Counted from the first letter of the stretch, positions 18,574 to 37,963 are shown. The stretch is DNA of 64,000 nt from Candidatus Tayloriibacteriota bacterium (GCA_003151615.1 PLXZ01000001.1:244318-308317); one strand, 5' to 3'. Made by a program: numbers and translations. The notes: a model not told the origin generated them from the sequence alone.

Positions 18574-18602
18574 TTGACAAATAACACAATATGTGATATT
18601 AT
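18574..18602 (+). promoter_or_regulatory. consensus sigma70 promoter upstream of cas1
   Basis: TTGACA-17 bp-TATTAT, 32 bp upstream of cas1 ATG. Confidence 0.6.
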
Positions 18603-18633
18603 TTCAGCGTTTATCAGCTAATATACAAAAACC

Positions 18634-19677
18634 ATGGACCTTCTTATCGACACCTATGGAACGAAAATCGGAGCAACGGGTGAACGCATTGCCCTTACTT
18701 TTCCCAACGTAAAGGAAAAGAAAGAATATCCGATTCATCGTATTGACAAAATTCTCATCCTTCGTGCCGGTTCATTGTCGACTGACGCGGCAAAATTGGC
18801 ACTCGATCATGACGTTGACATTGTATATCTCGGCTCGTTCGGCAAACCGATCGGCCGTTTGTTTTCGAGCGAACCAAAAGGTCTTGCCGGCCTTCGCCGT
18901 GCCCAGCTTGAAATCTCAAATTCTGAAAAGTCGCTCGAAATTGCAAAAATTCTCGTAAAGGGGAAGTGCACCAACCAAATTTCATACATTCGCAGTCTTG
19001 GCCATGCGCATAAAAAAGACTTCAGCAGGGAAATTCTCCAGATGGAAAGCATTTTAAAAACCATTGAACCTTTGCCGAATATTGAAAAAAGCAAGGAGCA
19101 GCTTCTCGGAATAGAAGGATACACGGCCGAGCGCTATTTCAGCTGTCTCAAAAAACTTCATACATTTTCAGGACGAAAACCGGAGGCGCGCGACAAATTC
19201 AACAGTGCCCTCAATTACGGTTACGGAATGCTTTACAATGAAGTTGACCGGGCGTGTCTTTATACCGGCCTTGATCCGAATATGGGTCTGTATCACAGCG
19301 AACGATATGGCAAGCCTGCGCTTGTCCTCGATCTCGTGGAGGAATTTCGCGTGCCGATCGTCGACTCGGTCGTATTTCCGCTTTTTTTGGAAAAGAAAAT
19401 CACCCAAAAAGGATGTTTTGATAAAACCGGACCCGGAGAATATCAGTTATCGCAGAAAGGGAAGAAGTTTTTGATTGAAGCGGTTGTGAATCGCCTCAAT
19501 GAAAGCGTTGTCTGGAACGGCGACGGCAAACGCTACAGCCTGAAGACGGTAATTGAAAACCAGGTTCGCGGCATGGCGCGGCACTTTATGGGCAAGGAAG
19601 AAAAATATATTCCGTTCGACATGGCGGAAATGCTTCAGCTCCGGCCGGAAGTTTTGGCTAAAAATTCGCATGAATAA
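18634..19677 (+). CDS. cas1: CRISPR-associated endonuclease/integrase Cas1
   Basis: LLGIEGYTAERYF (catalytic Glu region); NSALNYGYGMLYNEVDRACLYTGLDPNMGLYHSERYGKPALVLDLVEEFRVPIVD (Cas1 His and Asp/Glu metal-binding motifs). Confidence 0.9.
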   Translation: MDLLIDTYGTKIGATGERIALTFPNVKEKKEYPIHRIDKILILRAGSLSTDAAKLALDHDVDIVYLGSFGKPIGRLFSSEPKGLAGLRRAQLEISNSEKSLEIAKILVKGKCTNQISYIRSLGHAHKKDFSREILQMESILKTIEPLPNIEKSKEQLLGIEGYTAERYFSCLKKLHTFSGRKPEARDKFNSALNYGYGMLYNEVDRACLYTGLDPNMGLYHSERYGKPALVLDLVEEFRVPIVDSVVFPLFLEKKITQKGCFDKTGPGEYQLSQKGKKFLIEAVVNRLNESVVWNGDGKRYSLKTVIENQVRGMARHFMGKEEKYIPFDMAEMLQLRPEVLAKNSHE

Positions 19678-19996
19678 CTTCCCGATAATTACTTTGGTCA
19701 CATGGGAGACGCGTAATTGGCGGCATAATGATAAAGCATTGGTCTGGTGCAAAAATTACGGACTCAAGCCGATCACACGTACGGTTTATGTCGGAAAATT
19801 ATATGGTAAGGAGCGGATGCTGCTTCAGAAAAAGTTCCAGTTGGTTTTCAACAAAAAAACCGAGAAGTTCGCATTTATAGGCCTATGCCAATCATGCTTT
19901 GCCGCGGCTCGAATCGATGATACCATTAAGTGCAATGCGGAGCATATTTCAAACTTTGAACTCATTCAATTTCCCGAAATAGCCAATAAACGCTAG
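19670..19996 (+). CDS. cas2: Cas2 (108 aa), start overlapping cas1 stop (ATGAATAA)
   Basis: MNNFPIITLVTWETRNWRHNDKALVWCKNYGLKPITRTVYVGKL… fits the Cas2 beta-alpha-beta pattern. 8-bp cas1/cas2 overlap. Confidence 0.6.
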   Translation: MNNFPIITLVTWETRNWRHNDKALVWCKNYGLKPITRTVYVGKLYGKERMLLQKKFQLVFNKKTEKFAFIGLCQSCFAAARIDDTIKCNAEHISNFELIQFPEIANKR

Positions 19997-19998
19997 CT

Positions 19999-20035
19999 CC
20001 TGCATAATAGTGTCGCAAAAAGGAGATTGTGCAAC
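19999..20035 (+). repeat. array repeat R1
   Basis: Exact 37-mer. Confidence 0.95.
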
Positions 20036-20057
20036 CAATTCTATCAAGACCGTTACT

Positions 20058-20276
20058 ATGGGAAAAAAACGCAACTGCTTCTCCTTGTCTGATGCCAACA
20101 TTGAAAGGCTTATCTCGTTAGGCTTCGAAATAGAGCACATTTTCCATAAACCACAGGATATCGAAGCTGTGTTTTCCGAGTCCGGGGAACTTATTGTGAC
20201 CCAAGCCAGAACGATAACTGTATTACCTCCAAACTACAAATCTGCCGGAACAGCCGGAAAAACCGCGAATAACTAA
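20058..20276 (+). CDS. small hypothetical protein in segment S1 (72 aa)
   Basis: ATG 20058 (MGKKRNCFSL…). The ORF-track ORF starts inside repeat R1. Confidence 0.3.
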   Translation: MGKKRNCFSLSDANIERLISLGFEIEHIFHKPQDIEAVFSESGELIVTQARTITVLPPNYKSAGTAGKTANN

Positions 20277-20301
20277 CAAATACTAAACACCAAACCAAAC
20301 T

Positions 20302-20883
20302 ATGAATAACCAACAAAAGTCTATTGTAATAATTGATTTCATCAATGAAATCATTGACTCAAAGGGGAAGCTCGCCGGCAAAGGCTATGCTGCATTTGAT
20401 GCGAAGCATGGGACTTTGGACAATGTAAAAAAACTCCAAGAATTTGGCCGAAGAAATCACATTCCAATTTTATTTGTCCGAGTGGGTTTTTCTTCTTCCT
20501 ATGTAGAGCATCCGGAGAACTCCCCGTTATTCGGAGGAGCAAAGAAATTCGGGGCGTTGCAACTCGGAACTTCGGCAACTGAATTCCATCCAAAAGTTGC
20601 CCCGATCTCGGGCGAAACCATTATTACAAAACATCGTGTTAGCGCATTTTACGGAACCTCGTTGGAATTAATTTTGAAGAATCTTCAAGTTAAAGAAGTT
20701 CTTCTCGCTGGCGTGGCGACTGATTTAGCGGTTCAGGCTGCGGCTCGAGATGCACATGATCGCGATTTTGCCGTCACAGTTGTTTCCGATTGTTGTGCAG
20801 CGGCAAATGAGGAAGATCACGAATTATCTATCAAGACAATTGCTAAGATCGCAAAAATTATAACGCTCAGCGACTTGACGTAA
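20302..20883 (+). CDS. isochorismatase-family cysteine hydrolase (S1)
   Basis: IVIIDFINEI…VATDLAVQAAARDAHDRDFAVTVVSDCCAA: isochorismatase/PncA-like fold with catalytic Cys. Confidence 0.75.
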   Translation: MNNQQKSIVIIDFINEIIDSKGKLAGKGYAAFDAKHGTLDNVKKLQEFGRRNHIPILFVRVGFSSSYVEHPENSPLFGGAKKFGALQLGTSATEFHPKVAPISGETIITKHRVSAFYGTSLELILKNLQVKEVLLAGVATDLAVQAAARDAHDRDFAVTVVSDCCAAANEEDHELSIKTIAKIAKIITLSDLT

Positions 20884-21073
20884 CTCGAATTTCCGTTTTG
20901 TAGGAATGTCATCGCCTCCTGACCATATATTTTGGCCATGGACACTACTCAAATAGCTTTAATTAGAAGCATACCGGGCGGTAATATCATTGTTCCGGCC
21001 AACGACCATTGGCCGGACGCTCCTCGTGGTATGCCCTCCGGATACCACCAATCAATCATCCAAGGGAATACGC

Positions 21074-21110
21074 CCTGCATAATAGTGTCGCAAAAAGGAG
21101 ATTGTGCAAC
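21074..21110 (+). repeat. array repeat R2
   Basis: Exact 37-mer. Confidence 0.95.
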
Positions 21111-21294
21111 CAAATAAAACTTCGGTGACTCCATCCGTTGCAAGTTTGGTGAGGATGCGTTTGACTTCAGGCAACGGAGTCGGTGTTGCCTTTTCAAAAA
21201 GAGGATCAGCAGAATAGCAAAACGAACATTTCGCCGCGCAGCGAGTGCTGAAGTGCAGCGCAACGAAATCAAGATGAACTTTGTCGCCACTCAT
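21111..21294 (-). pseudogene. radical SAM protein, N-terminal ~60 aa only; cut at repeat R2 (S2)
   Basis: VALHFSTRCAAKCSFCY (CX3CX2C) …GVTEVLFGCT, then the frame runs into the repeat. Confidence 0.5.
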
Positions 21295-21300
21295 AAAATC

Positions 21301-22041
21301 TCATAGGCCGTTGTATTCAGGATTGCTTGGAGTGAGCACAAGCGACCGAACGTATGAAAATTCTTGACCAAGAATAAATTCAACAGCCTTGGCTAAATCT
21401 TTTGGATGTATCGCGCTATTTCCTTTGGAATTTATAAAGTCGGCGTCTGAAGTTCCATATTCAATATCGGCAGCAACGATGCCAGGACAAAGGTTGGTGG
21501 TTTTAATTCCTAATTTTGCAATTTCCGTTTGCAGAGCCGCTCCAAGACCATGCACAGCATATTTGGCAGAAATATAGGCTGACGGGCCAGTCATCACATT
21601 GTGCATTGGAAAACCCCAGTCTGCTACAATGTTAATAATACGCGCGTCTTTGCTATGTTTGAGAAAGGGGATTGCCTGACGGATCACATCAGCAGTTCCT
21701 ACGACACTGATTCGGAAGAATTCGGTGAGAGCATCACCGTCTATTTTAACAAGCTCGTTTTCCATCTTGCCGAATGCATTGCTAATGAGAACATCAATAA
21801 CATTGGTTTTTAATGACAACTCCTCAAACATTATTGAAATGCTTTTTGTATCTGCCAAATCGCAACGAAGAAGTGTAAAATCAGCAGACCCAAGCCCCTT
21901 TGCAAGGGCGTCCAGTTTTTTTTGATCACGGCCATGCAAATAAAGAGTGAAGCCGAGTTGAGCGAAGTGATGTGCCAAATAAGTTCCGATGCCAGATGTT
22001 GCACCAGTAATTAACATTTTCTTTTTCATCATAAAATTCAT
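21301..22041 (-). CDS. short-chain dehydrogenase/reductase (SDR), intact (S2)
   Basis: MLITGATSGIGTYLA (TGxxxGxG)… SAYISAKYAVHGLG (YxxxK). ORF extends to 22134. Confidence 0.8.
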   Translation of the reverse strand: MNFMMKKKMLITGATSGIGTYLAHHFAQLGFTLYLHGRDQKKLDALAKGLGSADFTLLRCDLADTKSISIMFEELSLKTNVIDVLISNAFGKMENELVKIDGDALTEFFRISVVGTADVIRQAIPFLKHSKDARIINIVADWGFPMHNVMTGPSAYISAKYAVHGLGAALQTEIAKLGIKTTNLCPGIVAADIEYGTSDADFINSKGNSAIHPKDLAKAVEFILGQEFSYVRSLVLTPSNPEYNGL

Positions 22042-22283
22042 TTTTCTAAAATTACGTCGCCATTGAAATACGTTGTCTCCATTATATCCAACTTTTTTAG
22101 AATGTAAAGGATGGACTTGTATTGTGGCTGGCATTTTGGCAAAAATTGCTGTTGCGATATAAAAACACCATTCATCAATGCTTATCAGGGAATTCGAGCC
22201 TTTTTTGAAGTGAGCGTATATGAGTGCGGCTGCTCGTTCCGCTTCGTAGCCGTAGGTTTTAACTTCGTCTCCGTCTCCACGCT

Positions 22284-22539
22284 TTAATACACTTTAACAG
22301 CTAACGGCACAGCTCGTGATCTGGACCTGAATAATTTTCCAGGCTGCCATTGCCAAACGTTTAGTTTCCAAGCGGTAGGTTGCCCGGATGAGAGTAGCAT
22401 TAAAGGGGCGGCTATACGGGCTTTTTTAGACCGTGCGATCCGATGTAAAGTTTGAATGTCTTTTGCGCTCAAATTGGGCAATATTTGCCTTGGATGAGAA
22501 TGCCAATCCCCTAGATATGTCCATTTGCGACACGATGAC
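22284..22539 (-). pseudogene. JAB/MPN metalloprotease C-terminal fragment, N-terminus removed at repeat R3 (S2)
   Basis: GDWHSHPRQILPNLSAKD = HxH-x8-S-xx-D JAMM-like motif; upstream part replaced by repeat sequence. Confidence 0.45.
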
Positions 22540-22576
22540 CCTGCATAATAGTGTCGCAAAAAGGAGATTGTGCAAC
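22540..22576 (+). repeat. array repeat R3
   Basis: Exact 37-mer. TTTGCGACAC at 22524-22533 is an inverted copy of repeat positions 11-20. Confidence 0.95.
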
Positions 22577-22655
22577 CAAATTTGACGGTGCGGATTCAAG
22601 GGGCGATTGGCCCGAGTTCAGTCCAAATAAAATAACAACTTTGAATCGAATCCGT

Positions 22656-23528
22656 ATGACATCATATACTAGAACAAAAAGTATCAGCTCGGATCTTGCC
22701 GATGGTTATGAGAATCTTCGAATTGCATTTGAAAAGCTGGGAGTAAAAATGGACTCTCCATCCATGGACGGCTTCCTGCGAAGAATTTTGTTCCCAGACG
22801 GCAGAAAGATATTTTTCACCGCGAATGCACTTCCATTAAATTGCGCCTCAGCGGTATCACTGGCACATGACAAATTAGCAACATATCAGGTTCTTATTGA
22901 AGAAGGCATTGCTATTCCAAAAGGAATCGCCTTTTTTGCTAGCGAGTTTCATCGTCGTCAAACACAAGCAGAACCTCAATTACTTCTCGAAAATTTACCT
23001 TCAGCAATCCTCGAACACTTTCCGGACATTACAGCGGCGAATTTTAAAGTGATTATTAAACCCGGACAGGGAAGGTGCGGCTATATGGTTAATATCTGCA
23101 AAACTCTTTTTGAAATCCAGTCATTCGCGAGAGATATTTTAACATCGTTTCATTATGGCTTAATCCAAGAATACATAAATGGGCCAGAGTATCGTGTTGT
23201 CATTTTGGATGAAAATCCCATTATCATATATCAAAAATGTTTAAGCCGTCTTGAAAAGGGGGAGAATGATAACCCCGTGCGTGGTGATACTGGCATTTCT
23301 ATTGAACTGGCAAAGGCACCTTTTGAAGTCATCGAAATTGCAAAGAAAGCTCATCGGGCTCTTGGCCTACGGTTTTCAGGTATAGATGTTTGTCTCCCTC
23401 AAAATATTCCGCCAGCAATAGTATTAGAAGTCAATTCGAGTCCTGGTTTTGATGCCTTGGAAGACGATTTTAATTTTGACGCGGAAAAATTAGCGGGTAT
23501 AATTGCAAAAGCGGTGCTTGCCACTTAA
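22656..23528 (+). CDS. ATP-grasp domain protein (RimK/glutathione-synthetase-like) (S3)
   Basis: FKVIIKPGQGRCGYMV…EYRVVILDENPIIIYQK…SGIDVCL…VLEVNSSPGF. Start at ATG 22656. Confidence 0.65.
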   Translation: MTSYTRTKSISSDLADGYENLRIAFEKLGVKMDSPSMDGFLRRILFPDGRKIFFTANALPLNCASAVSLAHDKLATYQVLIEEGIAIPKGIAFFASEFHRRQTQAEPQLLLENLPSAILEHFPDITAANFKVIIKPGQGRCGYMVNICKTLFEIQSFARDILTSFHYGLIQEYINGPEYRVVILDENPIIIYQKCLSRLEKGENDNPVRGDTGISIELAKAPFEVIEIAKKAHRALGLRFSGIDVCLPQNIPPAIVLEVNSSPGFDALEDDFNFDAEKLAGIIAKAVLAT

Positions 23529-23566
23529 TTTGTGTTAAAATTGTGCAAGTTTAGCTTCAAATTCTT

Positions 23567-23935
23567 ATGACGAATCAAAACCATAACATTCCTCGATTAA
23601 ACCTTGTTGCCATTCGGAGCCATCATCTTCAACTTTCTGTCCAGTTTTACTCGCTATTGGGACTGATTTTTGTGAAGGAGTGCCATGGAAAAGGACCTGA
23701 ACACTATTCTGCAAATAACGGTTCTTATGTTTTTGAAATATATCCTTCTAACGGTTCCGCGTCAGTTGAAAATGTTGTGCGCGTTGGGTTCTACATCAAA
23801 CACTTTAATGAGATTCTTGACACGCTGAACAAAAATGGGGCAATCCTACAGGTGCCGCCAAAAATTTCTCCGTGGGGAAGACGAATGGTCGTGCTTGATC
23901 CAGACAACAATCGTGTCGAGTTAATAGAAGAATAA
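23567..23935 (+). CDS. VOC/glyoxalase-family protein (S3)
   Basis: beta-alpha-beta-beta-beta module pattern (HLQLSVQ…WGRRMVVLDPDNNRVELIE). Confidence 0.55.
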   Translation: MTNQNHNIPRLNLVAIRSHHLQLSVQFYSLLGLIFVKECHGKGPEHYSANNGSYVFEIYPSNGSASVENVVRVGFYIKHFNEILDTLNKNGAILQVPPKISPWGRRMVVLDPDNNRVELIEE

Positions 23936-23945
23936 TCGTTTTGTC

Positions 23946-24634
23946 GTGAAATCGCATTGCAATCATGATTATGATGTCCTTGTAGTAGGTGCTGGCCCAG
24001 CCGGTTTGACTATAGCAAACCTTTTAGCCAGGACAAGTTTGAAATTTACCATTATCGAAAAAGAGACTTCTGGCCAAAGGCCAAGCCGAGCGACCGGTTT
24101 ACAACCCAGGCTTTTAGAAATCTTCGAATATATTGGCATCAAGGATCAGGTCATTAAGCGAGCTATCACACTGAAGGGAAGCCAGATATTTGTTGATGGA
24201 AACCAAACTGCCACGGTGTCCTTTTATGATCCAGTTACTAATTCGCACTCGCTTTCTTTAGATCAAGGTGTAATCGAAGCAATGCTTGCCGCAACCTTTC
24301 AGAAAGGTGGAGGCGTCATCGAGTGGGGCAAGCGTCTTGTGGGTCTACGACGGAAAAATGACCGCTGGATGGCAGATATTGCGACAACGATTCCCTCCCT
24401 TGAATATATTACCGCAGACATTATCATTGCATGTGATGGAGGCAAAAGCACTGTGAGAAAATTTGCAAACATTGAGTTTGTCGGGGAAACGTATTCAGAG
24501 ACTTCATTTATTTCTGATTGTCGCATCAGTTCCGATCTCAAGCCACAATATGTTTGCTTTTTATTTTCCAAAGAATATAGGCTCGTGTTAGTTCCATTCT
24601 CTCAGAGTAAATACAAAGTCAGTGGTGGTATGCA
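23946..24634 (+). pseudogene. FAD-dependent monooxygenase, N-terminal ~230 aa; 3' end cut at repeat R4 (S3)
   Basis: YDVLVVGAGPAGLTIANLLAR (GxGxxG FAD fold)…DGGKSTVR; frame continues into the repeat (…HLHNSVAKRRLCN). Family normally ~400 aa. Confidence 0.6.
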
Positions 24635-24671
24635 CCTGCATAATAGTGTCGCAAAAAGGAGATTGTGCAAC
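24635..24671 (+). repeat. array repeat R4
   Basis: Exact 37-mer. Confidence 0.95.
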
Positions 24672-25224
24672 TGGGCATGACAAGGCGAATCTGCTCGGTT
24701 CGTTGCTGACAACACAATTTCAACTTGGCGCAATGGCGCGGGCGAACCGGCCAGAGGAGGAACGTCGTGATTTTTATCTCTTCATTGACGAATTTCAGAA
24801 CTTTTCGACCGATGCTTTTGCTTCGATTCTGGCCGAAGCCCGCAAATACCGCTCCTGTCTTACGCTGTCACACCAATACATTGACCAGTTGCCGCTGCCG
24901 ATCCGGCAGGCGGTTTTTGGCAATGCCGGAACTCTGATTTCATTTCGCATCGGCAACACCGATGCCGAGGTGATGGAAAAGGAATTCGGCGGCGCATTCC
25001 CGGCGGCTGTGCTCGTTGACCTTGACCGCTATGAGGCGGCGGTGAAGTTGCTTGAAGACGGAATGAACCGGGAACCGTTTCGGGCGAAGATGCTGCCGCC
25101 GCTGGAAAATCGCGTTGGCCGGAAGGACAAACTCATCACACTGTCGCGCGAGCGGTTTGCCATGCCGCGCGCGAAGATTGATGAAAAGTTGAAGCGGTGG
25201 ATGGATTCGATGGTTGCTCAATGA
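24672..25224 (+). pseudogene. FtsK/HerA/TraG-superfamily ATPase C-terminal fragment; 5' end missing at repeat R4 (S4)
   Basis: Walker-B-like LFIDEFQNF then …TLSHQYIDQL…FGNAGTLISFRIG; no N-terminal Walker A; begins at repeat. Confidence 0.45.
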
Positions 25225-25236
25225 CAGAGTGTTTAT

Positions 25237-25797
25237 TTATTCATGGCCGAAGCAAAGTTGTTTCATGCCATCCCAAGCGTAAACCAATGCTGATATTACC
25301 GTGCAAACCGCGCACACAAGGAACCAATGCATATTAAGACTTCGATCCCATTTCAACAAAATCAAAAAAATAAGAATCATTTGTGACCCAGTCGCAATTT
25401 TCCCAATGATGTGTGGATTCACTGAAACCTTTCCGACAATCGTGCGTATAATTGTAAAACCAACGAGTAGTAACAAGTCCTGTCCGATTATCACACCAAA
25501 GAGCCAGAGCGGAATATAGTCTAAATAAATACCGTGATAAAAGCTCAAGATGATAATACCTACCGCAAGTAGCAATTTATCCGCAAGCGGATCAAGGATA
25601 GCCCCGATTTCGCTTTTCTGATTGAAGTGTCGAGCAATAAACCCATCCATCAAATCCAAAATTAATATGGCTATTAAAGAGGCTATTGCCAATACATGAT
25701 AAATATTTTCTCCATAGAAAACATAACAAATCAGTCCGATGGAAAAATATGGTATCAGTAAAATGCGCAAAATGGTGATTTTGTTCGCAGTCGTCAT
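25237..25797 (-). CDS. CDP-alcohol phosphatidyltransferase (S4)
   Basis: DLMDGFIARHFNQKSEIGAILDPLADKLL = D-G-x2-A-R…G-x3-D-x3-D motif; multi-TM. Confidence 0.7.
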   Translation of the reverse strand: MTTANKITILRILLIPYFSIGLICYVFYGENIYHVLAIASLIAILILDLMDGFIARHFNQKSEIGAILDPLADKLLLAVGIIILSFYHGIYLDYIPLWLFGVIIGQDLLLLVGFTIIRTIVGKVSVNPHIIGKIATGSQMILIFLILLKWDRSLNMHWFLVCAVCTVISALVYAWDGMKQLCFGHE

Positions 25798-25970
25798 GGT
25801 GTTACACGACCCTCTTATACTACCAATTGTTAATGCCATGATTGTTGAAATAATAGCGTAAACATTCAATTGCAACAATAGTAGGCCGAACTTTCTACCT
25901 TTGTAAAAGAATGCGCGACTGGCTTGCCGCAAAGCGCAAACCTTGACGCCTACCGTGACTGCCTGGCATC

Positions 25971-26143
25971 GTGCAAAATGGCGCGATGGAATCACGTCTG
26001 CCCCGTTTCAACCGCGCGCCCATCGTTGCCCCCATGCAGCTTGAGGAGCGCGACCGCCAGATCATCCGGCTCATTCACCGGCATCGTTTTCTCCGTTCCG
26101 ACCACATTGTTTCGTTCATCGGCGGCAGCCAGCAGCAGATTTT
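25971..26143 (+). pseudogene. N-terminal fragment of a winged-helix-like protein; cut at repeat R5 (S4)
   Basis: …LEERDRQIIRLIHRHRFLRSDHIVSFIGG then the frame enters the repeat. Confidence 0.3.
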
Positions 26144-26180
26144 CCTGCATAATAGTGTCGCAAAAAGGAGATTGTGCAAC
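26144..26180 (+). repeat. array repeat R5
   Basis: Exact 37-mer. Confidence 0.95.
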
Positions 26181-29053: not shown

Positions 29054-29090
29054 CCTGCATAATAGTGTCGCAAAAAGGAGATTGTGCAAC
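29054..29090 (+). repeat. array repeat R6
   Basis: Exact 37-mer. Confidence 0.95.
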
Positions 29091-29184
29091 CCCCCCGACT
29101 GTTGATTATCCAACTGTTTTGGAAAGCAGTATTCTTAATAAAAATGGAGGCAAAAGTTCAATAGGATGTTGTCCAACGAAATGA

Positions 29185-29583: not shown

Positions 29584-29620
29584 TCTGCTTTCCAATTGAC
29601 TGCCCAGTGAAACCGTCAAA

Positions 29621-30025
29621 ATGAAAAAGAGATTGTTAGTAGCGTTCGTTTTTACGATTTTGACTTTGATTATCATTGCCGCAGGAGTTGTCCTTCGACT
29701 TGCCACGCCCGCAGAATGGCCAATTCAGGCAGGAACATTAAAAATTGAAAGCTTTAAGATTGGAGATCAGCCATTCGTGATGATAGAAGGGCAGCCGATG
29801 AATTATTTCGGACAAATTCAATCAATCAATGTTGATTTTGACGGAACGAGTAATCGCCTTATTGTTAGCCGATGTCTGGTTCGATGGAATCCATTCAACA
29901 AAATTATTGTAAATAATCAATGGCCCGTCGTTTATCCTCTTGATGGCATAAAAGCAGGTAAATACGCCGTCGTCTACAAAAGCACAGAAGGCGAAACAAC
30001 AGCCGGAACTTTTGATATTCCATAA
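29621..30025 (+). CDS. small secreted/anchored protein, paralog B (S6)
   Basis: Tandem paralog of 29185-29583. Confidence 0.55.
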   Translation: MKKRLLVAFVFTILTLIIIAAGVVLRLATPAEWPIQAGTLKIESFKIGDQPFVMIEGQPMNYFGQIQSINVDFDGTSNRLIVSRCLVRWNPFNKIIVNNQWPVVYPLDGIKAGKYAVVYKSTEGETTAGTFDIP

Positions 30026-30415
30026 CCAAAACAAGTTTTCAATTGACTGCCTACCTCAATCGCCGATAAATGGAACACTCCCGATGAGTATCACCGTCAA
30101 GTTATAGGAGGGTTGCGGCTAGGATTATTCCGAATCCACACTGACCGGACGGTTGTTTTGAACAGTTTGCGCAATTATGGTGAATAAATCGGACGCAATG
30201 TTGCGATAGTAGTTGTGCATTGAAAATAAGAGTCCTCCATGATTGCTTCTCCGGTTTTTTGGTAAACGTCGCTTTAATGTTTTCCGCCGTCATATAACGT
30301 GATGTAATCCTTCTGTTTTTTTGATCAAACAATTCTCCACTTGCCATCGACGCCGTTGGCATATCGCAGCAACCCCAAGTTCCCATCCTTAACCGTAAAT
30401 AACACGAGAGCAACT

Positions 30416-30540
30416 CACCAGAATCGCCCCTTTTTCATGTTGCCGCTTCCGGCAATTCTGCCCGTCTTCATCGAAAGGCTGCGGGGAGATACGCTTCAGG
30501 GTGGCAGTTCATTTCAAACCAACAACCAAAGGAGAAAACT
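30416..30540 (+). promoter_or_regulatory. 125-bp structured leader (copy A) upstream of DUF1281-like gene (S6)
   Basis: ~85% identical to 32103-32232; contains hairpin TTGCCGCTTCCGGCAA and a conserved GGGTGGCAGTTC block before the RBS. Confidence 0.5.
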
Positions 30541-30978
30541 ATGCCCAACTGGTGCAACAACAAGCTCGTCGTGCTTGGACCCGACGAGGACGTTGAACGG
30601 TTCAAGAAAACAGCCATCGGCAATTCGCCGTGGCACACGAAAGAAGAAAAGAAAAGCGTCCTCAACTTCCACAGCCTCGTGCCCGTCCCGCCGGAGATTG
30701 TATCGGCTGGCTATGGGGAGGCCGGTTACGAATGGGAACGGCAAAACTGGGGCTGCAAATGGGGCGCGTGTCATACCCGACTGGTGGACGGACGGAAAGG
30801 CCACCTCGAATACAGCTTCGAAACCCCGTGGTGTCCGCCCATTCCGTTTCTCGAAAAGCTGGGACGGGAGTGGCCGATGCTCACGTTCCTCCTCGACTAC
30901 GAAGAACCGGGCATGAGCTACAAGGGCATCGCCAAAGTTCATGGCGAGGCCGTTGAAGATCATTGCTTCGACCTCTGA
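30541..30978 (+). CDS. DUF1281-like plasmid leading-region protein (MPNWCNN N-terminus) (S6)
   Basis: MPNWCNNKLVVLGPDEDVERF… From memory, this N-terminus matches a family common on conjugative plasmids. Confidence 0.5.
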   Translation: MPNWCNNKLVVLGPDEDVERFKKTAIGNSPWHTKEEKKSVLNFHSLVPVPPEIVSAGYGEAGYEWERQNWGCKWGACHTRLVDGRKGHLEYSFETPWCPPIPFLEKLGREWPMLTFLLDYEEPGMSYKGIAKVHGEAVEDHCFDL

Positions 30979-31007
30979 AACACAAACAACCAACAGAAAG
31001 GAAAATT

Positions 31008-32087
31008 ATGAGTGCAGTCATGGAATCAAAAGATCAAGTCACCCTGTATTACCGTGGAGGTTCATCAGACAAGGTGTATCAGGCCGCGATTGAACCGAGG
31101 GGCGACGAGTTCGTCGTCCACTTCGCCTACGGACGGCGCGGGTCAACATTGACGACCGGGACGAAGACAAGTTCACCAGTGGACTATGACACGGCGAAGA
31201 AAATCTTCACCAAACTCGTCAGCGAAAAGAAGGCCAAGGGCTACATCGAAGGCGAGAACGGCACGCCCTATCAACACCATGAGCACACGGACAAACAGGC
31301 ATCAGGCATTTTGCCCCAATTGTTGAACGCCATCGAAATGGCCGACGTGGAGAAGTTCCTGCACGATGACGCATATTGCGCCCAGGAGAAATTCGACGGG
31401 CGACACATCCTCATCCGCAAGCAGGACGAACACGTCGAGGGCATCAACAAGAAAGGATTGCTGGTCGGATTGCCGGAAACCGTGTCAGACGACATCCGCA
31501 ACCTGTCCGGCAGCTTCATTCCCGACGGTGAATCCATCGGCGATGAGTATCACGTCTTTGATCTCCTCGAATGGAACGGCGAGAACTTGCGTCCGTTGCC
31601 CTACAGGAAACGGCGCGCTCACCTGATGGAATTGCTCTCCGGTTCGCAGCTTCAGTTCATCAAGCTGGTCGGGACGGCGTTCACGACGGCGCAGAAGCTT
31701 GAACTGTGGCACCGGTTGAAGTGGGAAAACCGCGAGGGCATCGTGTTCAAGCGGCTGGACGCGCCCTACACGCCGGGCAAGCCCAACAGCGGCGGGCCGC
31801 AGTTGAAATTCAAGTTCACCGCCACGGTGTCTGCAATCGTTGCCAAAATCAATGTCCAGCGCAGCGTGGAGATCAGTTTGTTCAAGGGCAGGAGCTTGAT
31901 TTCGTGCGGCAACGTCACCATCCCGGCCAATCACGACATCCCCACAGTGGGCGCTGTCGTGGAGGTGCGGTATCTCTACGCCTTCAGGGAAAGCCATTGT
32001 TTGCACCAGCCGGTGTATCTGGGAATCCGTGATGATGTTGAACCCGGCGAGTGCATTGTCCAGCAGTTGAAATTCAAGGCGGAGTAA
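31008..32087 (+). CDS. WGR domain fused to ATP-dependent DNA ligase (S6)
   Basis: WGR (VTLYYRGGSSDKVYQAAIE…FVVHFAYGRRGSTLT); ligase adenylation motif KxDG (EKFDGRHILI). RBS AAAGGAAA before ATG 31008. Confidence 0.7.
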   Translation: MSAVMESKDQVTLYYRGGSSDKVYQAAIEPRGDEFVVHFAYGRRGSTLTTGTKTSSPVDYDTAKKIFTKLVSEKKAKGYIEGENGTPYQHHEHTDKQASGILPQLLNAIEMADVEKFLHDDAYCAQEKFDGRHILIRKQDEHVEGINKKGLLVGLPETVSDDIRNLSGSFIPDGESIGDEYHVFDLLEWNGENLRPLPYRKRRAHLMELLSGSQLQFIKLVGTAFTTAQKLELWHRLKWENREGIVFKRLDAPYTPGKPNSGGPQLKFKFTATVSAIVAKINVQRSVEISLFKGRSLISCGNVTIPANHDIPTVGAVVEVRYLYAFRESHCLHQPVYLGIRDDVEPGECIVQQLKFKAE

Positions 32088-32093
32088 AATCAC

Positions 32094-32232
32094 AGGGGCG
32101 ATTCACAAGAATCGCCCTTTTTTCATGTTGCCGCTTCCGGCACATCTGGCCGTCTTCATGGAAACGGCACGGGGCGATACGATTCAGGGTGGCAGTTCCT
32201 TTCAATAAACCAACAACCACAGGAGCATCACA
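32094..32232 (+). promoter_or_regulatory. terminator hairpin plus 130-bp structured leader (copy B) upstream of ardC-like gene (S6)
   Basis: GGGGCGATTC-ACAA-GAATCGCCC+T6, then the same TTGCCGCTTCCGGCA hairpin and GGGTGGCAGTTC block as copy A. Confidence 0.5.
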
Positions 32233-33090
32233 ATGAAAAATCAAACGTATGACCGTATCACCGACCGAATCATCGCCTTGATGGAGCAAGGCACCGTCCC
32301 ATGGCACAAGCCGTGGAAAGCCCGAACCGGGTTGCCCCGGAACTTCGTCAGCAAACATCCCTATCGCGGCATCAATGTCTTTCTGTTGATCGCCATGCGG
32401 TATGAATCACCGTTCTGGCTCACCTGCCGTCAGGCAAATCAGTTGGGTGCCAGCGTCAAGAAGGGCGAGAAGGCTTGTCCAGTTGTTTTCTGGAAACAGA
32501 CGACCGTTGAGGACAAGCAAACGGGCGAAGAGAAGAAAAAATATCTTCTTCGCTTTTACCACGTTTTCAACACCGCCCAATGTGACGGATTGAAGCTGGA
32601 TTCAGCCATAGCGGAGGCGCTGTTGAGTCCCACATCAAAACCGGAGGACATTGTGGCCGGTATGCCGCAGCCGCCAGTTCTGAAGCACGGCATGACCCAC
32701 GCCTACTATTCCCCCCGTGAAGATTGCGTCAGCCTGCCGCCACGGGAGCGGTTCGAGCGGACGGAGGATTATTATTCTACCGTCTTCCACGAGCTTGTTC
32801 ATTCGACAGGTCACGAAAAGCGGTTGAAGCGATCCACGCTCACGGAATCAGCCGGTTTCGGCTCCAATCCCTACTGCAAAGAGGAATTGATTGCCGAAAT
32901 GGGTGCGGCGTTTCTGTGCGGACAGGCCGAGATTGCCGAGCGGACGATTGACAATTCCGCCGCATATCTCAAAGGCTGGCTTGAACAGTTGCGTCATGAC
33001 AAGATGCTCATTGTGCAGGCGGCGGCGCAGGCGCAGAAGGCGGCGGACTTTGTTCTGGGAAAAAGCGAACCCGCAGAGGTTGCGCCATGA
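32233..33090 (+). CDS. ardC: ArdC-like antirestriction protein (ssDNA-binding N-domain + HExxH metalloprotease) (S6)
   Basis: VPWHKPW…RGINVFLL… and HELVHSTGH zincin motif. Confidence 0.8.
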   Translation: MKNQTYDRITDRIIALMEQGTVPWHKPWKARTGLPRNFVSKHPYRGINVFLLIAMRYESPFWLTCRQANQLGASVKKGEKACPVVFWKQTTVEDKQTGEEKKKYLLRFYHVFNTAQCDGLKLDSAIAEALLSPTSKPEDIVAGMPQPPVLKHGMTHAYYSPREDCVSLPPRERFERTEDYYSTVFHELVHSTGHEKRLKRSTLTESAGFGSNPYCKEELIAEMGAAFLCGQAEIAERTIDNSAAYLKGWLEQLRHDKMLIVQAAAQAQKAADFVLGKSEPAEVAP

Positions 33091-33548
33091 AAGACTTCAA
33101 TCCGAAGGAATTCAAGGTCGTCGCCTTGCGGGAATGTCCGGTGCCGGACGAGATGAAAATCTGTGCGGAACCGCAGCAGGTCGTGGATTATTGGCGGATG
33201 CACATTGCGACACATCCGTATTTCAACCCGGATTGCGAGTGTTTCGTGGTGCTGCTTCTAAACATACGCAGGCGGGTCAAGGGGCATCATCTGGTGTCCA
33301 TCGGAACGATGGACACCATCTTGGTGCATCCGCGCGAGGTGTTCAGCGTGGCGGTTGCGATGAAGGCGGCTTACATCGTGCTCATTCACAACCACCCATC
33401 GGGTGACCCGACGCCAAGCGACGCGGACATCAAGGTCACGCGCGATTTGATTCGCGCCGGCCAGTTGTTGAAAATCGAAGTTACGGATCATGTCATTATG
33501 GGAAATCCTGAATATTCCTCGTTGCGAGGGTTGGGATATTTCTTTTAG
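33087..33548 (+). CDS. RadC-like JAB domain protein (DUF2466) (S6)
   Basis: VLIHNHPSGDPTPSDADIKVT JAMM motif; start overlaps ardC stop. Confidence 0.8.
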   Translation: MKDFNPKEFKVVALRECPVPDEMKICAEPQQVVDYWRMHIATHPYFNPDCECFVVLLLNIRRRVKGHHLVSIGTMDTILVHPREVFSVAVAMKAAYIVLIHNHPSGDPTPSDADIKVTRDLIRAGQLLKIEVTDHVIMGNPEYSSLRGLGYFF

Positions 33549-33797
33549 CTCCGGGTAATGCCGAGTTCACGGGGTGATTCTTCAGAACGCTGAAGAATCA
33601 CCCCTTTTTTATTTCTTCGACTCGGCATTAACGGGATTATGCCGAGCTCGGCATAATGGTTATTTCTACAATTGAATCCCATTAACCCGGACAAGGAAAC
33701 TTGCCGGGTTTTTAATTTCCATTTATTAACTCCAATCCGATTTGTAAATATTTAATAAAAACCCGCATAACAAGTATGCGGGTGGTCGAGGAATCAA

Positions 33798-34193
33798 TCA
33801 GGGACAAACTGGCTGCAAGAGCTTAATGCTTTCCAAAGCATCATTGAAATGGCCTTTTGATGCAAAGGCATCAATCAGCTTGGCAATTTCTTCGAGTGTC
33901 AAAGAACGCCCTGCAAGCTTGACTGCTTCAAGAGCGGTGCTTGCGCGTGCGTCAACTAGACAAGCATTAACCAATTTGTTAATCTCTTCTAGTGTTAAGG
34001 GCCGGTCGGCGAGTTTAGCCGATTCGAGAGCGTCATTAAACCAGCCCTTTGTCACACAGGCATCAATTAATTTCGCGATTTCTTCGTTTGTTAAAGAACG
34101 CTTTGCAAGCTTGGCGGCTTCAAGGGCAATTCCGATCTTTCCATTACGGATTGAAACGGCAATGAGATAATCAGCAGCATCGTCTAGTAACAT
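33798..34193 (-). CDS. HEAT/PBS-lyase-like repeat protein (S6)
   Basis: ~30-aa repeats (RSLTLEEIAKLIDA…GHFNDALESxKL) four times. Confidence 0.5.
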   Translation of the reverse strand: MLLDDAADYLIAVSIRNGKIGIALEAAKLAKRSLTNEEIAKLIDACVTKGWFNDALESAKLADRPLTLEEINKLVNACLVDARASTALEAVKLAGRSLTLEEIAKLIDAFASKGHFNDALESIKLLQPVCP

Positions 34194-34403
34194 AGGTGGC
34201 TCCTTTGGTTTTGATATATGCTGCTGATTCCGTAAGTGGGATCGGTGCAGCAGTCAGAAATCCTTCGCCGCAAATCCCTGACTGCTGAAACGATTCCACT
34301 CATAGCTGCTTGGCAACTGTGGCGAATGCTATCATAAGGCTTTATTATGGTCAAAGCGCTGACCTGGTTATTTGTTAGATTTCTTGAAAAGTTCTTTTAA
34401 TGC

Positions 34404-34970
34404 GTGTATGATTCAGCCGTGAAAATTGTGGGGCTTTGCGGAAGATCTGGCGCTGGGAAAAGCAGCGTAGTCGCAATTGTCCGAGAAAGTCTCCCCGCTG
34501 TGCAGATCATTTCTACTGGCGATGCAATTCGTCAACTGTTAAATAGGCGCGGAATTGAAATCAATCATTACAATCTCCAATCCATAACAAAAGAGATTCT
34601 TGCAGACAGAGGAGAAAATTATATTTCCATTGTTTTTGATCTCATTGATTCTAAATTTCCAATAACTTTAATTGATTCATTTCGTCGCCTTGAAGATGTT
34701 GCGTGTGTAACCAAGGCGTTTGGACAGCCACTAATAATTTCAATCAGCGCGCCCGCAACGGTTCGTTTTAATCGATTGCTTGCCAGGTCAAGACCGTCGG
34801 ACGCTTTAGATGAAGCTTCGTTCAAGGATTTAACATTGCTTGAAAATTCTTGGGGCGTTGAGAATCTGTGTCGGATTGCTGAAATACAAATTGAAAATAC
34901 CAACACATATGCGGAACTGCGTAAGCAGACCCTGGCTGTTCTCCGGAAAGTATTTCAGCCATTCTGCTGA
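34404..34970 (+). CDS. P-loop NTPase/kinase-like protein (S6)
   Basis: Walker A GLCGRSGAGKSS at N-terminus. Confidence 0.5.
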   Translation: MYDSAVKIVGLCGRSGAGKSSVVAIVRESLPAVQIISTGDAIRQLLNRRGIEINHYNLQSITKEILADRGENYISIVFDLIDSKFPITLIDSFRRLEDVACVTKAFGQPLIISISAPATVRFNRLLARSRPSDALDEASFKDLTLLENSWGVENLCRIAEIQIENTNTYAELRKQTLAVLRKVFQPFC

Positions 34971-35037
34971 TAAAATAGGTGCAACATCATATGTATAGGA
35001 ATATTGAGTCATTGGTCTTGCCATTTCTGGATCAAGA

Positions 35038-35074
35038 CCTGCATAATAGTGTCGCAAAAAGGAGATTGTGCAAC
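35038..35074 (+). repeat. array repeat R7
   Basis: Exact 37-mer. Confidence 0.95.
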
Positions 35075-35097
35075 AATATTTAAGACCTACCGAAGCT

Positions 35098-35697
35098 ATG
35101 TGGATGTCTGTTGAATTCGAGGTTCCACGGGGAGGCATGCAGCATATTTCATGGCCGTCATTTTGGCAACGAGTTCTAGTCCGGCAATGGAGTTTCCCAT
35201 TAATTCTTATGTCACCCAAGGCCTTTGCGGAATGGAGAAATAATCAATTCAATATTTTCGGAAGAAAAACCGAACCAGATTCGCACCTTAAGGCGGCTGT
35301 TGGACACGTGCTGGAAATTTTACGCAAATCAAATTATCCAAAAGTTACAGATTGGCGATTGTTTATACATTGGGCACAACGAATTAGGATACAGCGCATT
35401 AAAATTCCCAAAGAGATTGTAGAACCGCCATGCGATCACATTTTACCCCAAGCCAAAAAATGGTTTCGTTTTAGAAGTGATCCCATTCCCAATACTGATT
35501 GCCGCGATGAGTTCTGGTTTGGTGACTTGCCTTCAATTTCGGCACCCGAACCGAATGACGGTTTTCGCCTTGAATTCAAAGCCGTTGTTAATAACTGGCT
35601 TTATATTTATTTGCTGCCGTGGCTTGGATTTATCGGCTTTTTGATAGCATGTGGTAGGTTGCTTTTCAATCTTTGGGAGAAAGGCACTCCCCAATAA
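35098..35697 (+). CDS. hypothetical protein with C-terminal TM helix (S7)
   Basis: ORF from ATG 35098; no family recognised. Confidence 0.4.
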   Translation: MWMSVEFEVPRGGMQHISWPSFWQRVLVRQWSFPLILMSPKAFAEWRNNQFNIFGRKTEPDSHLKAAVGHVLEILRKSNYPKVTDWRLFIHWAQRIRIQRIKIPKEIVEPPCDHILPQAKKWFRFRSDPIPNTDCRDEFWFGDLPSISAPEPNDGFRLEFKAVVNNWLYIYLLPWLGFIGFLIACGRLLFNLWEKGTPQ

Positions 35698-36477
35698 AAA
35701 ACAATCTTCTTACGAAGATTGTTTTGCAAAATCTGGCGACTCAACACTTTACCGTTGTGAAGCTACAGGATTTTGATTTCTGCGCACGTTAAGCATGGCT
35801 GCCCGTCGAGCTTGGTCAAAATCTCTGGCAAAAGCGGCTCTAAATTCCCTCCGCTTCTTCCAGTAATTTTTACTGAATAGATGTTTGATTGATTTCATAT
35901 CGTTTAAGATGCGTAATTTAGTTCAAAGAACAATTTGCCATTTTAAGCTTTGCCCTTAATAAGGTGCTTAAAAAGCGTCCCACGTCTCTATTAAGTAGTT
36001 TAATGCTTATTTATCATTTTTGCAAATTGTAAAAAGTGGCAGATGTTCCTTTCACGAAGGAGAATCGTCTGCAGTCCCCTTGAAAATCCGCGCGACCGGA
36101 TATTGTCAGCTTTTCGAGCTGCGGAATCCGCCCGCGACAAAGATGATAAGGCATATCAGCAGAATCAGGCCAAGCCCACTGCCGCCGATGACGGGACCAC
36201 CAAAGTAAAACCCACCGCCGCCGAACAAGAGAAGCAGAACAACCATGAGTAGTAATAGGTTCATAGGCCGATAAAATAACACGCCATTGCACGGTTGCTA
36301 TGGGGTCTTCACCCCATAGCGCACAAAATGTGAAATATTCCTGTAAAATAGTTACTCTCTTAAACTTGCCAGAATTGGCACGTTTGCCCACCTACTGATT
36401 TTCCCGGCGGAAGATAGGATTTCATTCGGATGCAGTTCGACTTCGCGAGCCGCACCAGTTCTTCACAACCAAATAAC

Positions 36478-36514
36478 CCTGCATAATAGTGTCGCAAAAA
36501 GGAGATTGTGCAAC
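36478..36514 (+). repeat. array repeat R8
   Basis: Exact 37-mer. Confidence 0.95.
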
Positions 36515-36944
36515 GCTTTCACAAAATTGGTTCAATCTGTTCAGCATCATCGGGATCATCGGCAGTCTTTGGGTTGCAATCATCACGCTCCGCTCTGAAG
36601 CCAAAACAAGGCGCGTCGCAAACCTCCTCACCATCACCGCCAACCACCGCGAGATCTGGAAGGAGTTTTTCCACTCTCCACAGTTAGCGCGCGTCATTGA
36701 CCCTTCCGCCGACGTTTCAAAGACACCGCCAACTCCAGCCGAGGAATTTTTCGTCTCTCTGGTCGTTTCCCACATCAGCAGCGTCTATGAAACTCTCAAG
36801 GACGACCTACTAACCAAGCAGGAAGGATTACGTCGCGATGCCGCATGGTTCTTTTCCCTGCCGATTCCAAAGGCAGTTTGGACTGCGACCAAACTGCTGC
36901 AAAATCAAGATTTTGCAGCTTTCATTGAATCTTCTTTGAAGTAG
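36515..36944 (+). CDS. hypothetical membrane-associated protein; 5' end undefined, begins at repeat R8 (S8)
   Basis: Open from the repeat; hydrophobic FNLFSIIGIIGSLWVAIITL then a soluble domain. Possibly 5'-truncated. Confidence 0.3.
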
Positions 36945-37075
36945 TGTGAGAACTTGAATTTGACTGTGGGATATCCAAGGAATCGTCCAAGAAGAAGCCC
37001 CGTCAAGGCGGGGCTGTGAAGTGATGTATTCGTTTCATACATCATCAAATTTCGTTGGGACAAAACAAGCTTCAG

Positions 37076-37330
37076 CTAATCTATGCAGGAACAAAGATGG
37101 GGACGTATTGGAACCCCCTGTGCCCGCACGATGTAACGTTCGCCAGATTGGCGTATTGCCCCAAACTCGACAAGCAGATCGAGATAAGCATTAACAGTCG
37201 TTGAAAAATCAACAACGTTGCTGTGACGGGCTCTCTTGTATGCGACAACCACCTCGCGTGCTGTAAAGCTGTCACGAGAATAGATAATTTTGGCAAGAGC
37301 TTTTTGGTTTTCAATAATGCGTGTGTTCAT
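37076..37330 (-). CDS. small hypothetical protein (84 aa) (S8)
   Basis: ORF track. Confidence 0.35.
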   Translation of the reverse strand: MNTRIIENQKALAKIIYSRDSFTAREVVVAYKRARHSNVVDFSTTVNAYLDLLVEFGAIRQSGERYIVRAQGVPIRPHLCSCID

Positions 37331-37454
37331 ATGTTTGTTAATAGTCTATATTAGTTATACTAAACATTTATCCATTTTGCAAATTCTTCCCAGAGTAATT
37401 TCCCAAACTTGGCTCTCCAGGCTGGGAATTTGGCTTCGGGCAAAATTTTAGAGT

Positions 37455-37491
37455 CCTGCATAATAGTGTCGCAAAAAGGAGATTGTGCAAC
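37455..37491 (+). repeat. array repeat R9
   Basis: Exact 37-mer. Confidence 0.95.
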
Positions 37492-37745
37492 GGATATATG
37501 TATATGATATTAGGTATAATCATTTTAGATACTAAATACAACATGCTTACACTAATCGTATTCTTAATACTCTGTGTTATATCACCACCTCTGGCTTGGT
37601 TTGTATTTATCATTTGGGCTATATACTGGATATATATCTTAATAGTGGCGAGTAGAATCTAAGGAACTAGATGAAGTGCTGCACCAATTCCTGCTGCATT
37701 TGTTGCTGCATGAACTCCTGCTTTTACAACTGGATTATTTTTTAT

Positions 37746-37782
37746 CCTGCATAATAGTGTCGCAAAAAGGAGATTGTGCAAC
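37746..37782 (+). repeat. array repeat R10 (last); followed by an AT-rich stretch
   Basis: Exact 37-mer. Confidence 0.95.
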
Positions 37783-37963
37783 AATATATAATTTTGTTGT
37801 TCAGTGCGGAACAGGGGATTACGCCAATTTTAAAATAAAATTTTGATAAAGTTTTTGTAAAAAATAACCTTGCAAATATTTTCGGACGTGAGAGCATGGA
37901 GGCATGGAAGCACGCATCGCCATTCGCGAGGGACTGAAGCAGGAATAATGCTATACTTTTGAT

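Follow-up and report, generated by a model that had tools for sequence, protein, structure and literature searches.

Kilobase-scale segments between CRISPR-like repeats beside a divergent Cas1-Cas2 pair: a putative long-fragment capture locus in Patescibacteria

The prevailing view of adaptation in CRISPR systems holds that spacer length is fixed by a Cas1-Cas2 ruler and that adaptation modules exist to feed effectors. A stretch of 64,000 nt from a Candidatus Tayloriibacteriota bacterium (GCA_003151615.1 PLXZ01000001.1:244318-308317), referred to here at its full length as the window, raises the question of what a cas1-cas2 pair is doing beside identical repeats that are spaced by as much as several kilobases of gene-carrying DNA. 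An earlier reading of this DNA from its sequence alone (the sequence-only reading) had proposed three candidate explanations, namely Cas1-Cas2-mediated capture of very long prespacers, a Cas1-associated integron-like cassette array, and co-option of Cas1 for another recombination function. Here we describe the array, its cas genes and the corresponding loci of related genomes. The evidence from the array, from the borders of the inter-repeat segments (hereafter spacers) and from the family favours the first of these candidates: we consider it probable that long DNA is inserted at the cas-proximal repeat, with duplication of that repeat, by a stand-alone Cas1-Cas2 integrase that has no length ruler.

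The window was scanned for copies of the 37-mer CCTGCATAATAGTGTCGCAAAAAGGAGATTGTGCAAC, allowing up to 3 mismatches and using 100 shuffled sequences as a control. Ten copies were detected, all on the plus strand and all without a mismatch, at positions 19999-20035, 21074-21110, 22540-22576, 24635-24671, 26144-26180, 29054-29090, 35038-35074, 36478-36514, 37455-37491 and 37746-37782, the last and most distal copy showing no degeneration. There was no eleventh copy at this threshold in the 64 kb and no match in the shuffled sequences; all ten repeats fall within one 18-kb block, and the other 46 kb contain none. Since the nucleotides immediately outside the 37 nt differ at all ten copies, the repeat unit is exactly 37 nt long. 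The intervening lengths are 1038, 1429, 2058, 1472, 2873, 5947, 1403, 940 and 254 bp, and the first repeat starts 2 bp after the cas2 stop codon, which ends at 19996. The ten perfect and co-oriented repeats of the sequence-only reading, its range of 254-5947 bp for the segments between them and its distance between cas2 and the first repeat were thus reproduced, and no such repeats are expected by chance. Its comparison with CRISPR repeats in length and ending also held, the 37-mer being partly palindromic with an ...ATTG....AAC end. No short-spaced repeat array occurs anywhere in the window, no terminal inverted repeats bound the array block as a whole, and the repeat matches neither a CRISPR direct repeat (CRISPR-DR) nor any other family in Rfam. 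A promoter-like match on the minus strand of the repeat was weak, with hexamers that, by eye, are not conserved in the repeats of relatives, and was dropped.

The array is preceded by cas1 (18634-19677, plus strand), whose 347-aa product matches Pfam Cas_Cas1 (7.6e-68) and TIGR00287 (244 bits, against a cut-off of 71.7) and scores below all subtype-specific NCBIfam cut-offs. In an alignment with the A. fulgidus Cas1 4n06 the catalytic motifs GIEG, NYGY, GLYH and LDLVEEFR are kept, in agreement with the unambiguous Cas1 motifs reported previously, and the protein scores 114.8 bits against this CRISPR Cas1 and 69.2 bits against the casposase 6opm. It is a full-length CRISPR-type Cas1 whose catalytic motifs are intact. 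A TG-extended promoter-like site, TTGACA-17-TATTAT, lies upstream of cas1 at 18574-18602 on the plus strand; the consensus promoter noted before is therefore present, with 11/12 positions, as a consensus match only. Immediately upstream of cas1, in divergent orientation, are smpB and the tmRNA gene (17653-18587 together; tmRNA at 17653-18086, minus strand).

The second gene (19670-19996, plus strand) overlaps the cas1 stop codon and encodes 108 aa. It was called cas2 by the sequence-only reading, a label that has no support from database families, there being no match in Pfam or NCBIfam, and that is upheld by comparison of profiles and of folds. Aligned to canonical Cas2 by hhalign, a profile built from nine family members reached 98.1% probability (E 1.2e-13), and an AlphaFold (AF2) model of the protein, with a predicted local distance difference test (pLDDT) score of 86.8, gave a Foldseek search of the PDB in which the top 20 matches were all Cas2. 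By both kinds of comparison the protein is a Cas2 homologue. In its strand 1 the canonical Y-D-[IV] is replaced by W-x-[TS]-R-N, and some 57 representative clusters have E, Q, R, K, H, D or N where the catalytic Asp would stand. This is a distinct, probably nuclease-dead Cas2 subfamily, designated here W-x-T-R-N. Its relatives were collected by an exhaustive phmmer search, used in place of a word-based search that gave 3 matches.

Between cas2 and the array there is no separate leader. The first repeat is directly preceded by AGCT (19995-19998, plus strand), an instance of a purine-G-C-T motif (RGCT/GGC) that occurs at this place in 11 lineages and is missing before internal repeats; as judged from these sequences, the motif appears to behave like a leader-repeat junction. 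The repeat itself carries a terminal inverted repeat, TGCAYA...TGTGCA, that is paired in 93.5% of cells. Covariation in the putative repeat RNA was not significant (1 compensatory change, with 109/500 shuffles scoring as well), and with a single such change the inverted repeat is compatible with an RNA hairpin and with symmetric recognition by a protein alike.

A correction to the sequence-only reading is that the arrangement is not unique to this genome. Relatives of the window Cas1 with 55-79% identity form more than 120 clusters (at 90% identity), of which the few that are named belong to Patescibacteria, Parcubacteria, Paceibacterota and Nomurabacteria; among species-representative genomes, two close matches are labelled Candidatus Saccharibacteria, after which identity drops to 38% for the Cas1 ranked next. 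Wherever the fetched sequence extends past cas1, a Cas2 of the W-x-T-R-N subfamily comes next; the Patescibacteria/Saccharibacteria relatives that have this Cas2, with the repeat family directly behind it, show Cas1 identities of 58-79%. One repeat family follows cas2 in 11 lineages (pattern CCTGCAYA..TGTCG.A.AAGG...TTGTGCAAC, consensus CCTGCAnAnnTATGTCGCAAAAAGGAnATTGTGCAAC), its first copy lying 2-15 bp after the cas2 stop codon in most lineages and about 65 bp after it in L104. Arrays were present in 6/6 loci with at least 5 kb of downstream sequence: besides the ten repeats of the window, there are eight on an 876-kb contig (L106; spacers of 213, 2526, 144, 579, 4007, 386 and 140 bp), four on a 1.08-Mb contig (L113; 7008, 591 and 756 bp) and two each in L002 (3232 bp), L112 (998 bp) and L107 (444 bp). 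None of the 22 spacers of these six arrays, which measure 140-7008 bp, is of canonical length. Long-spacer arrays are a conserved trait of this Patescibacteria Cas1-Cas2 clade.

Within each array the repeats are identical, and between arrays several positions differ, which is the signature of duplication in situ and not of sites borne by cassettes. No spacer content is common to arrays of different genomes. In related genomes the module is found after rplT, after rpsT, between the genes for HU and RNase Y, or after an RNA methyltransferase gene; given these differing chromosomal sites, the cas1-cas2-repeat unit has moved or been acquired repeatedly. The sample behind the window also yielded one of these loci (L112; ENA ERZ27254241 k141_2068804, 10001-12453), in which a second organism has a Cas1 (65% identity) and a Cas2 of its own together with an array of two repeats.

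When 241 million metagenome records were searched for the repeat core, the outcome was 17 contigs with a single copy each and no canonical short-spaced array, so that the conventional array with the same repeat, for which the sequence-only reading had suggested a search, did not emerge. Among viral contigs (IMG/VR) there was neither the repeat core nor a close relative of this Cas1. Three single family repeats (L090 1044-1080, L099 2927-2963 and L096 5160-5196) have no cas1 or cas2 within 1-5 kb upstream and may be internal or distal repeats of long-spacer arrays; the neighbours of those in L090 and L099 (fatty-acid desaturase, Cache-HAMP sensor, ThiF) are unusual for reduced genomes.

What, then, lies between the repeats? 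Spacer 1 (20036-21073, 1038 bp) contains a 63-aa open reading frame (ORF) with a weak PPDK_N match and an intact isochorismatase gene (20302-20883). Spacer 2 (21111-22539, 1429 bp) holds a minus-strand SDR gene and codons 1-61 of a radical-SAM gene that is cut at the repeat. In spacer 3 (22577-24634, 2058 bp) ATP-grasp and glyoxalase genes are followed by a 3'-truncated gene for an FAD monooxygenase, which at the right end covers positions 1-220 of the 349 in the Pfam profile only. Spacer 4 (24672-26143, 1472 bp) begins with a 5'-truncated type IV coupling-protein-like gene, of which only the C-terminal ~180 aa are present (phrog_5156 625-804 of 824) and which plasmid homologues match in their C-terminal part only, and continues with a CDP-alcohol phosphatidyltransferase gene. 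In spacer 5 (26181-29053, 2873 bp) an MFS ORF that continues into the repeat is accompanied by a gene for polyprenyl synthase and an ORF of 201 aa, and the right edge holds the final ~34 codons of a PEGA-like gene. Spacer 6 (29091-35037, 5947 bp) is a mobile-element block with genes for a WGR-DNA ligase, ArdC, RadC and an AAA kinase-like protein. ORFs without a family match occupy spacer 7 (35075-36477, 1403 bp), spacer 8 (36515-37454, 940 bp) has a DUF6082-like ORF whose frame is already open at the repeat, and spacer 9 (37492-37745, 254 bp) is AT-rich (GC 0.33) with no ORF of at least 60 aa inside. Gene orientation inside the spacers is mixed, and the composition is atypical in spacers 3, 5, 6 and 9 and not in the others, which is not decisive.

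The borders of spacers in other arrays likewise cut through genes: the 386-bp spacer of L106 is an internal piece of an NDK gene (profile 57-134 of 135), another border in that array interrupts a protein kinase (Pkinase profile 156-259 of 263), and one in L113 a carbamoyltransferase (profile 2-209 of 346). Overall, 28/44 spacer ends (64%) lie in open frames, compared with 31% in shuffled sequence. With borders that fall inside genes, the spacers are arbitrary DNA fragments rather than gene cassettes. No motif resembling a protospacer adjacent motif was found at the spacer ends. The three cas-proximal spacers (starting at 20036, 21111 and 22577) begin with CAATTC, CAAATA and CAAATT, a CAAWT start that is absent from the other 19 spacers examined.

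Part of this DNA could be traced. Cluster look-ups showed that some spacer proteins have relatives with at least 90% identity on other contigs, and a 117-kb scaffold from another project (L114) proved informative. It carries a run of genes for a primase, a methylase, a NERD protein, an AAA ATPase, a WGR-DNA ligase and ArdC, contiguous with genes for RadC, an SDR, a radical-SAM protein, a PEGA-like protein and a 1027-aa coupling protein, and it has no copy of the 37-nt repeat. Positions 21113-22050 of spacer 2 are 89.7% identical in nucleotides to L114 10917-9980 and the homology breaks off exactly at the repeat; residues 1-61 of the radical-SAM protein, after which the frame runs into the repeat, are identical to those of L114 at 59/61 positions, the CxxxCxxC included. 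The ligase-ArdC-RadC portion of spacer 6 (30984-33547) runs collinearly with L114 6986-9789, the nucleotide identity being 72-81%, the coupling-protein fragment of spacer 4 shares 43% aa identity with about aa 605-690 of the L114 coupling protein, and the 3' end of the L114 PEGA-like gene is matched both by the right edge of spacer 5 and by the first 34 nt of spacer 3. ArdC homologues are mostly located on conjugative plasmids. At least four to five of the nine window spacers come from relatives of one family of conjugative plasmids or elements resembling integrative and conjugative elements (ICEs), an origin that rests on spacers 2 and 6 at the nucleotide level, spacer 4 at the protein level and the edges of spacers 3 and 5; other DNA has been sampled as well. 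The order, orientation and divergence of the L114-related parts are scrambled in the window, and such repeated sampling of one element family, at different divergence, resembles the way in which CRISPR arrays sample invaders.

Two features of this mobile DNA were observed in passing. The first 34 nt of spacer 3 (22577-22610) are 88% complementary to 28961-28994, 60 nt from the right end of spacer 5, and both stretches match L114 13324-13355 at the 3' end of the PEGA-like gene, which could reflect a site where cutting is preferred, or two independent captures from related elements at one position. Spacer 6 also contains a 129-nt direct repeat (30398-30526 and 32086-32214, 81% identity), with hairpins at 30407-30430 and 32094-32119, whose copies precede a DUF1281_C gene and ArdC; an analogue in L114 is a 30-nt repeat (6902-6931 and 8136-8165) that lies ahead of the ligase and ArdC genes there, and the 129-nt repeat may be a regulatory element of the donor mobile-element family.

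An interference module was sought to accompany this array. Pfam detected no Cas effector family among the scanned window ORFs, which included all those of at least 400 aa, and no Cas4 in the 64 kb, so that the absence of an effector, stated by the sequence-only reading for 18 kb, holds for the whole window as far as Pfam can tell. Nor were cas genes other than cas1 and cas2 found within 10 kb on either side in L002, L106, L107, L112 or L113. The window ORFs of at least 400 aa encode proteins of transport or housekeeping, namely phospholipase D, glycosyltransferase, HlyD, MacB/FtsX, FtsH and MFS proteins, and one of 571 aa is unmatched. This last ORF (47247-48962) stands in a cluster (41601-54052) of three paralogous HlyD membrane-fusion genes and two MacB/FtsX permease genes. 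Farther on is a tRNA-Ile gene (58408-58481) with the anticodon UAU (written tat), an unusual bacterial way to read AUA. Because both short regular spacers and an interference module were looked for and not found, we do not file the locus as an ordinary CRISPR-Cas locus.

As a working model, we propose an adaptation module made up of a catalytically intact Cas1 and a nuclease-dead, divergent Cas2, with no effector, in which the array would grow by the insertion of double-stranded fragments of unregulated length (0.14-7 kb) instead of prespacers of ~35 bp. Cas1-Cas2 would recognise the cas2-proximal junction formed by RGCT and the 37-nt repeat, make staggered cuts at both repeat borders and join the 3' ends of the captured fragment there, after which gap repair would duplicate the repeat. 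These steps lean on the established course of Cas1-Cas2 spacer integration and of casposase integration. Unlike in characterised complexes, no length ruler would be applied, possibly owing to the divergence of Cas2 and to the lack of Cas4. Such a mechanism would account for the identity of repeats within arrays, the lineage-specific repeat variants, the arbitrary fragment ends, the wide range of lengths and the presence of the junction motif at the first repeat only. That Cas1-Cas2 is the inserter, that insertion is polarised and that the array has any downstream use are points that we infer.

Several observations weigh against this model and have to be set beside it. Characterised Cas1-Cas2 complexes measure prespacer length and, to our knowledge, kilobase substrates are unprecedented for a CRISPR-type Cas1. 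No donor of near-100% identity was found: protein look-ups for the isochorismatase and ArdC gave matches only on this genome's own contigs, IMG/VR held ArdC relatives of at most 57% identity and none of the SDR, the homologues of the geranylgeranyl pyrophosphate (GGPP) synthase are metagenome proteins only and give no donor taxonomy, and a megablast of the whole array, along the lines of the plasmid and phage comparison suggested by the sequence-only reading, matched no curated plasmid or phage. The strain comparison suggested in the same place yielded no pair differing by one cas-proximal spacer; the sets L002/L003/L004, L001/L008 and L005-L007 are identical over their shared array sequence, and most of these contigs end soon after the first repeat. 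The share of spacer ends in open frames is lower than the 81% found at random genome positions. Finally, the 7-kb spacer of L113 carries a full-length cysS, so that rearrangement could have enclosed native chromosome between some of the repeats; this cysteinyl-tRNA synthetase gene (L113 12093-13502) lies beside IS3-type transposase fragments.

Other explanations share some of these observations. A large part of what the spacers contain comes from mobile elements (ArdC, RadC, ligase, coupling protein), and viruses with solitary repeat units or mini-arrays are known (PMC6858448), both of which would fit a Campbell-type process in which circular elements with one repeat copy recombine whole, by homologous or site-specific recombination, at a chromosomal repeat and then decay by deletion to fragments, Cas1-Cas2 merely marking the site. 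We regard this as unlikely, since the related element L114 lacks a repeat copy, the viral contigs lacked the repeat core, no spacer contains an integrase gene and the border of spacer 2 lies inside the radical-SAM gene; moreover, the spacers of 140-600 bp and the 386-bp NDK piece would each require deletions ending exactly at a repeat border. Tandem genomic islands at the tmRNA gene, in which direct repeats copy the ssrA 3' end and every island has an integrase, were considered separately and rejected, as the 37-mer is absent from 17653-18086 with up to 3 mismatches and there is no integrase in the spacers. An integron-like array, with attC-like repeats and discrete cassettes exchanged by a site-specific recombinase that might be Cas1 itself, was the second candidate of the sequence-only reading. 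Many spacers do hold one to few intact genes (isochorismatase, SDR, ATP-grasp, glyoxalase) and the array adjoins a recombinase-type enzyme with a strong promoter-like site, yet genes are cut at the borders, orientation is mixed, some spacers are non-coding or tiny (140-254 bp), an array has one and the same repeat throughout where attC sites would vary from cassette to cassette, no cassette is shared by different genomes, and no tyrosine recombinase (Phage_integrase family) was matched among the scanned window ORFs, all of which makes this candidate distinctly unlikely and led us to set it aside.

It is also conceivable that the 37-mer is an independent element, such as a self-spreading terminator, a small-RNA gene or a protein-binding site, with ordinary chromosome between its copies and cas1-cas2 next to it by coincidence. 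The pairing of its terminal inverted repeat, the cas-less single repeats in metagenomes and the cysS gene in L113 could be read in this way, but ten co-oriented copies confined to an 18-kb block that starts 2 bp after cas2, a first copy directly after cas2 in 11 lineages despite differing chromosomal sites, truncated genes abutting the repeats, the lack of an Rfam match and the weak covariation leave it very improbable. An assembly artefact, in which unrelated contigs were joined at a short shared repeat, seems hardly credible. Assemblies of the family do often break after cas2 (L001, L005, L008 and L009 end within 0.4-1.8 kb); against this, the contig name (k141_...) implies k=141, a length well beyond the 37 nt of the repeat, so that unique flanks span each junction. 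The window sequence was assembled on three contigs, of which the one fetched (L105) is identical over 21 kb, arrays are present on 0.88-Mb and 1.08-Mb contigs of other projects whose names suggest long-read assembly, and L002, L003 and L004, from three samples, are 99.6-100% identical over the shared part of their array, L004 ending before the second repeat.

The locus can be compared with known systems. It resembles the adaptation module of CRISPR in the catalytic motifs of Cas1, in the fold of Cas2, in the overlap of both genes in one operon, in 37-nt repeats (known range 23-50 nt) that are identical within the array and adjoin the cas genes, in the junction motif before the first repeat, and in spacers that are unique to each lineage and derive in several cases from mobile elements; the nearest Cas1 group is that of types I-C/I-D/I-G. 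It differs in its irregular spacers of 140-7008 bp, where known ones are uniform at 25-50 bp, in the absence of a separate leader and of Cas4, effector or interference genes, and in a Cas2 of a separate subfamily without the catalytic Asp. With casposons it would share the insertion of kilobase DNA by a Cas1-family integrase that duplicates the target on both sides. Unlike casposons, the locus lacks a family B polymerase gene in or near the array and includes Cas2, its inserts are arbitrary fragments without terminal inverted repeats instead of a defined element, what is duplicated would be a CRISPR-like repeat of 37 nt, and its Cas1 is far closer to CRISPR Cas1 than to the casposase. Casposon target-site duplications measure ~14-15 bp. 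Integrons, which comprise an IntI tyrosine recombinase, an attI site and co-oriented cassettes that each end in an attC of their own, also have gene-carrying units between short repeats beside the gene and promoter of a recombination enzyme, but the present locus has no IntI-type tyrosine recombinase, its repeats are not cassette-specific and its units are fragments with truncated genes, in mixed orientation and in part non-coding. Archaeal viruses with solitary repeat units and mini-CRISPR arrays (PMC6858448) offer very small or single-repeat arrays without effector genes; these have spacers of normal length, are viral and use the host Cas machinery, unlike the chromosomal arrays described here, which have their own cas1-cas2. 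By analogy, the locus would work like an adaptation module with a casposon-like substrate size.

In keeping with the undescribed status claimed by the sequence-only reading, a search of full-text literature gave no account of Cas1-Cas2 arrays with kilobase spacers; most subscription-journal papers fall outside its coverage, so that a prior description is possible. For bacteria in the CPR (candidate phyla radiation), Burstein 2016 (PMC4742961) speaks of no more than "partial cas operons".

A conserved Cas1-Cas2 clade with fragments of 0.14-7 kb and no nearby effector challenges both of the assumptions with which we began, and a comparison of W-x-T-R-N with canonical Cas2 offers a way to test what sets prespacer length. 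The locus bears on the scenario in which CRISPR originated from casposons; if the most far-reaching reading, taken up below, is true, it would represent a living counterpart to the intermediate that has been proposed between integration of the casposon type and CRISPR adaptation. For makers of DNA-recording and DNA-insertion tools, too, a Cas1-Cas2 pair with kilobase inserts at a defined 37-nt site would be of interest. With no effector present, the array may serve as a memory that works without one or as a platform by which reduced genomes capture genes, or it may be a by-product that is tolerated. Whether a clade of Patescibacteria (CPR) archives 0.1-7 kb pieces of foreign DNA in a chromosomal array through a ruler-less Cas1-Cas2, with no CRISPR effector, is a proposition for which we judge the arguments evenly balanced. 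If true, it would amount to a previously unrecognised, Cas1-driven route of DNA capture that could provide effector-independent memory or gene acquisition in reduced genomes. For ultra-small symbiotic bacteria, which had been considered nearly devoid of CRISPR, the locus could reveal a new way of capturing genes horizontally, or of defence.

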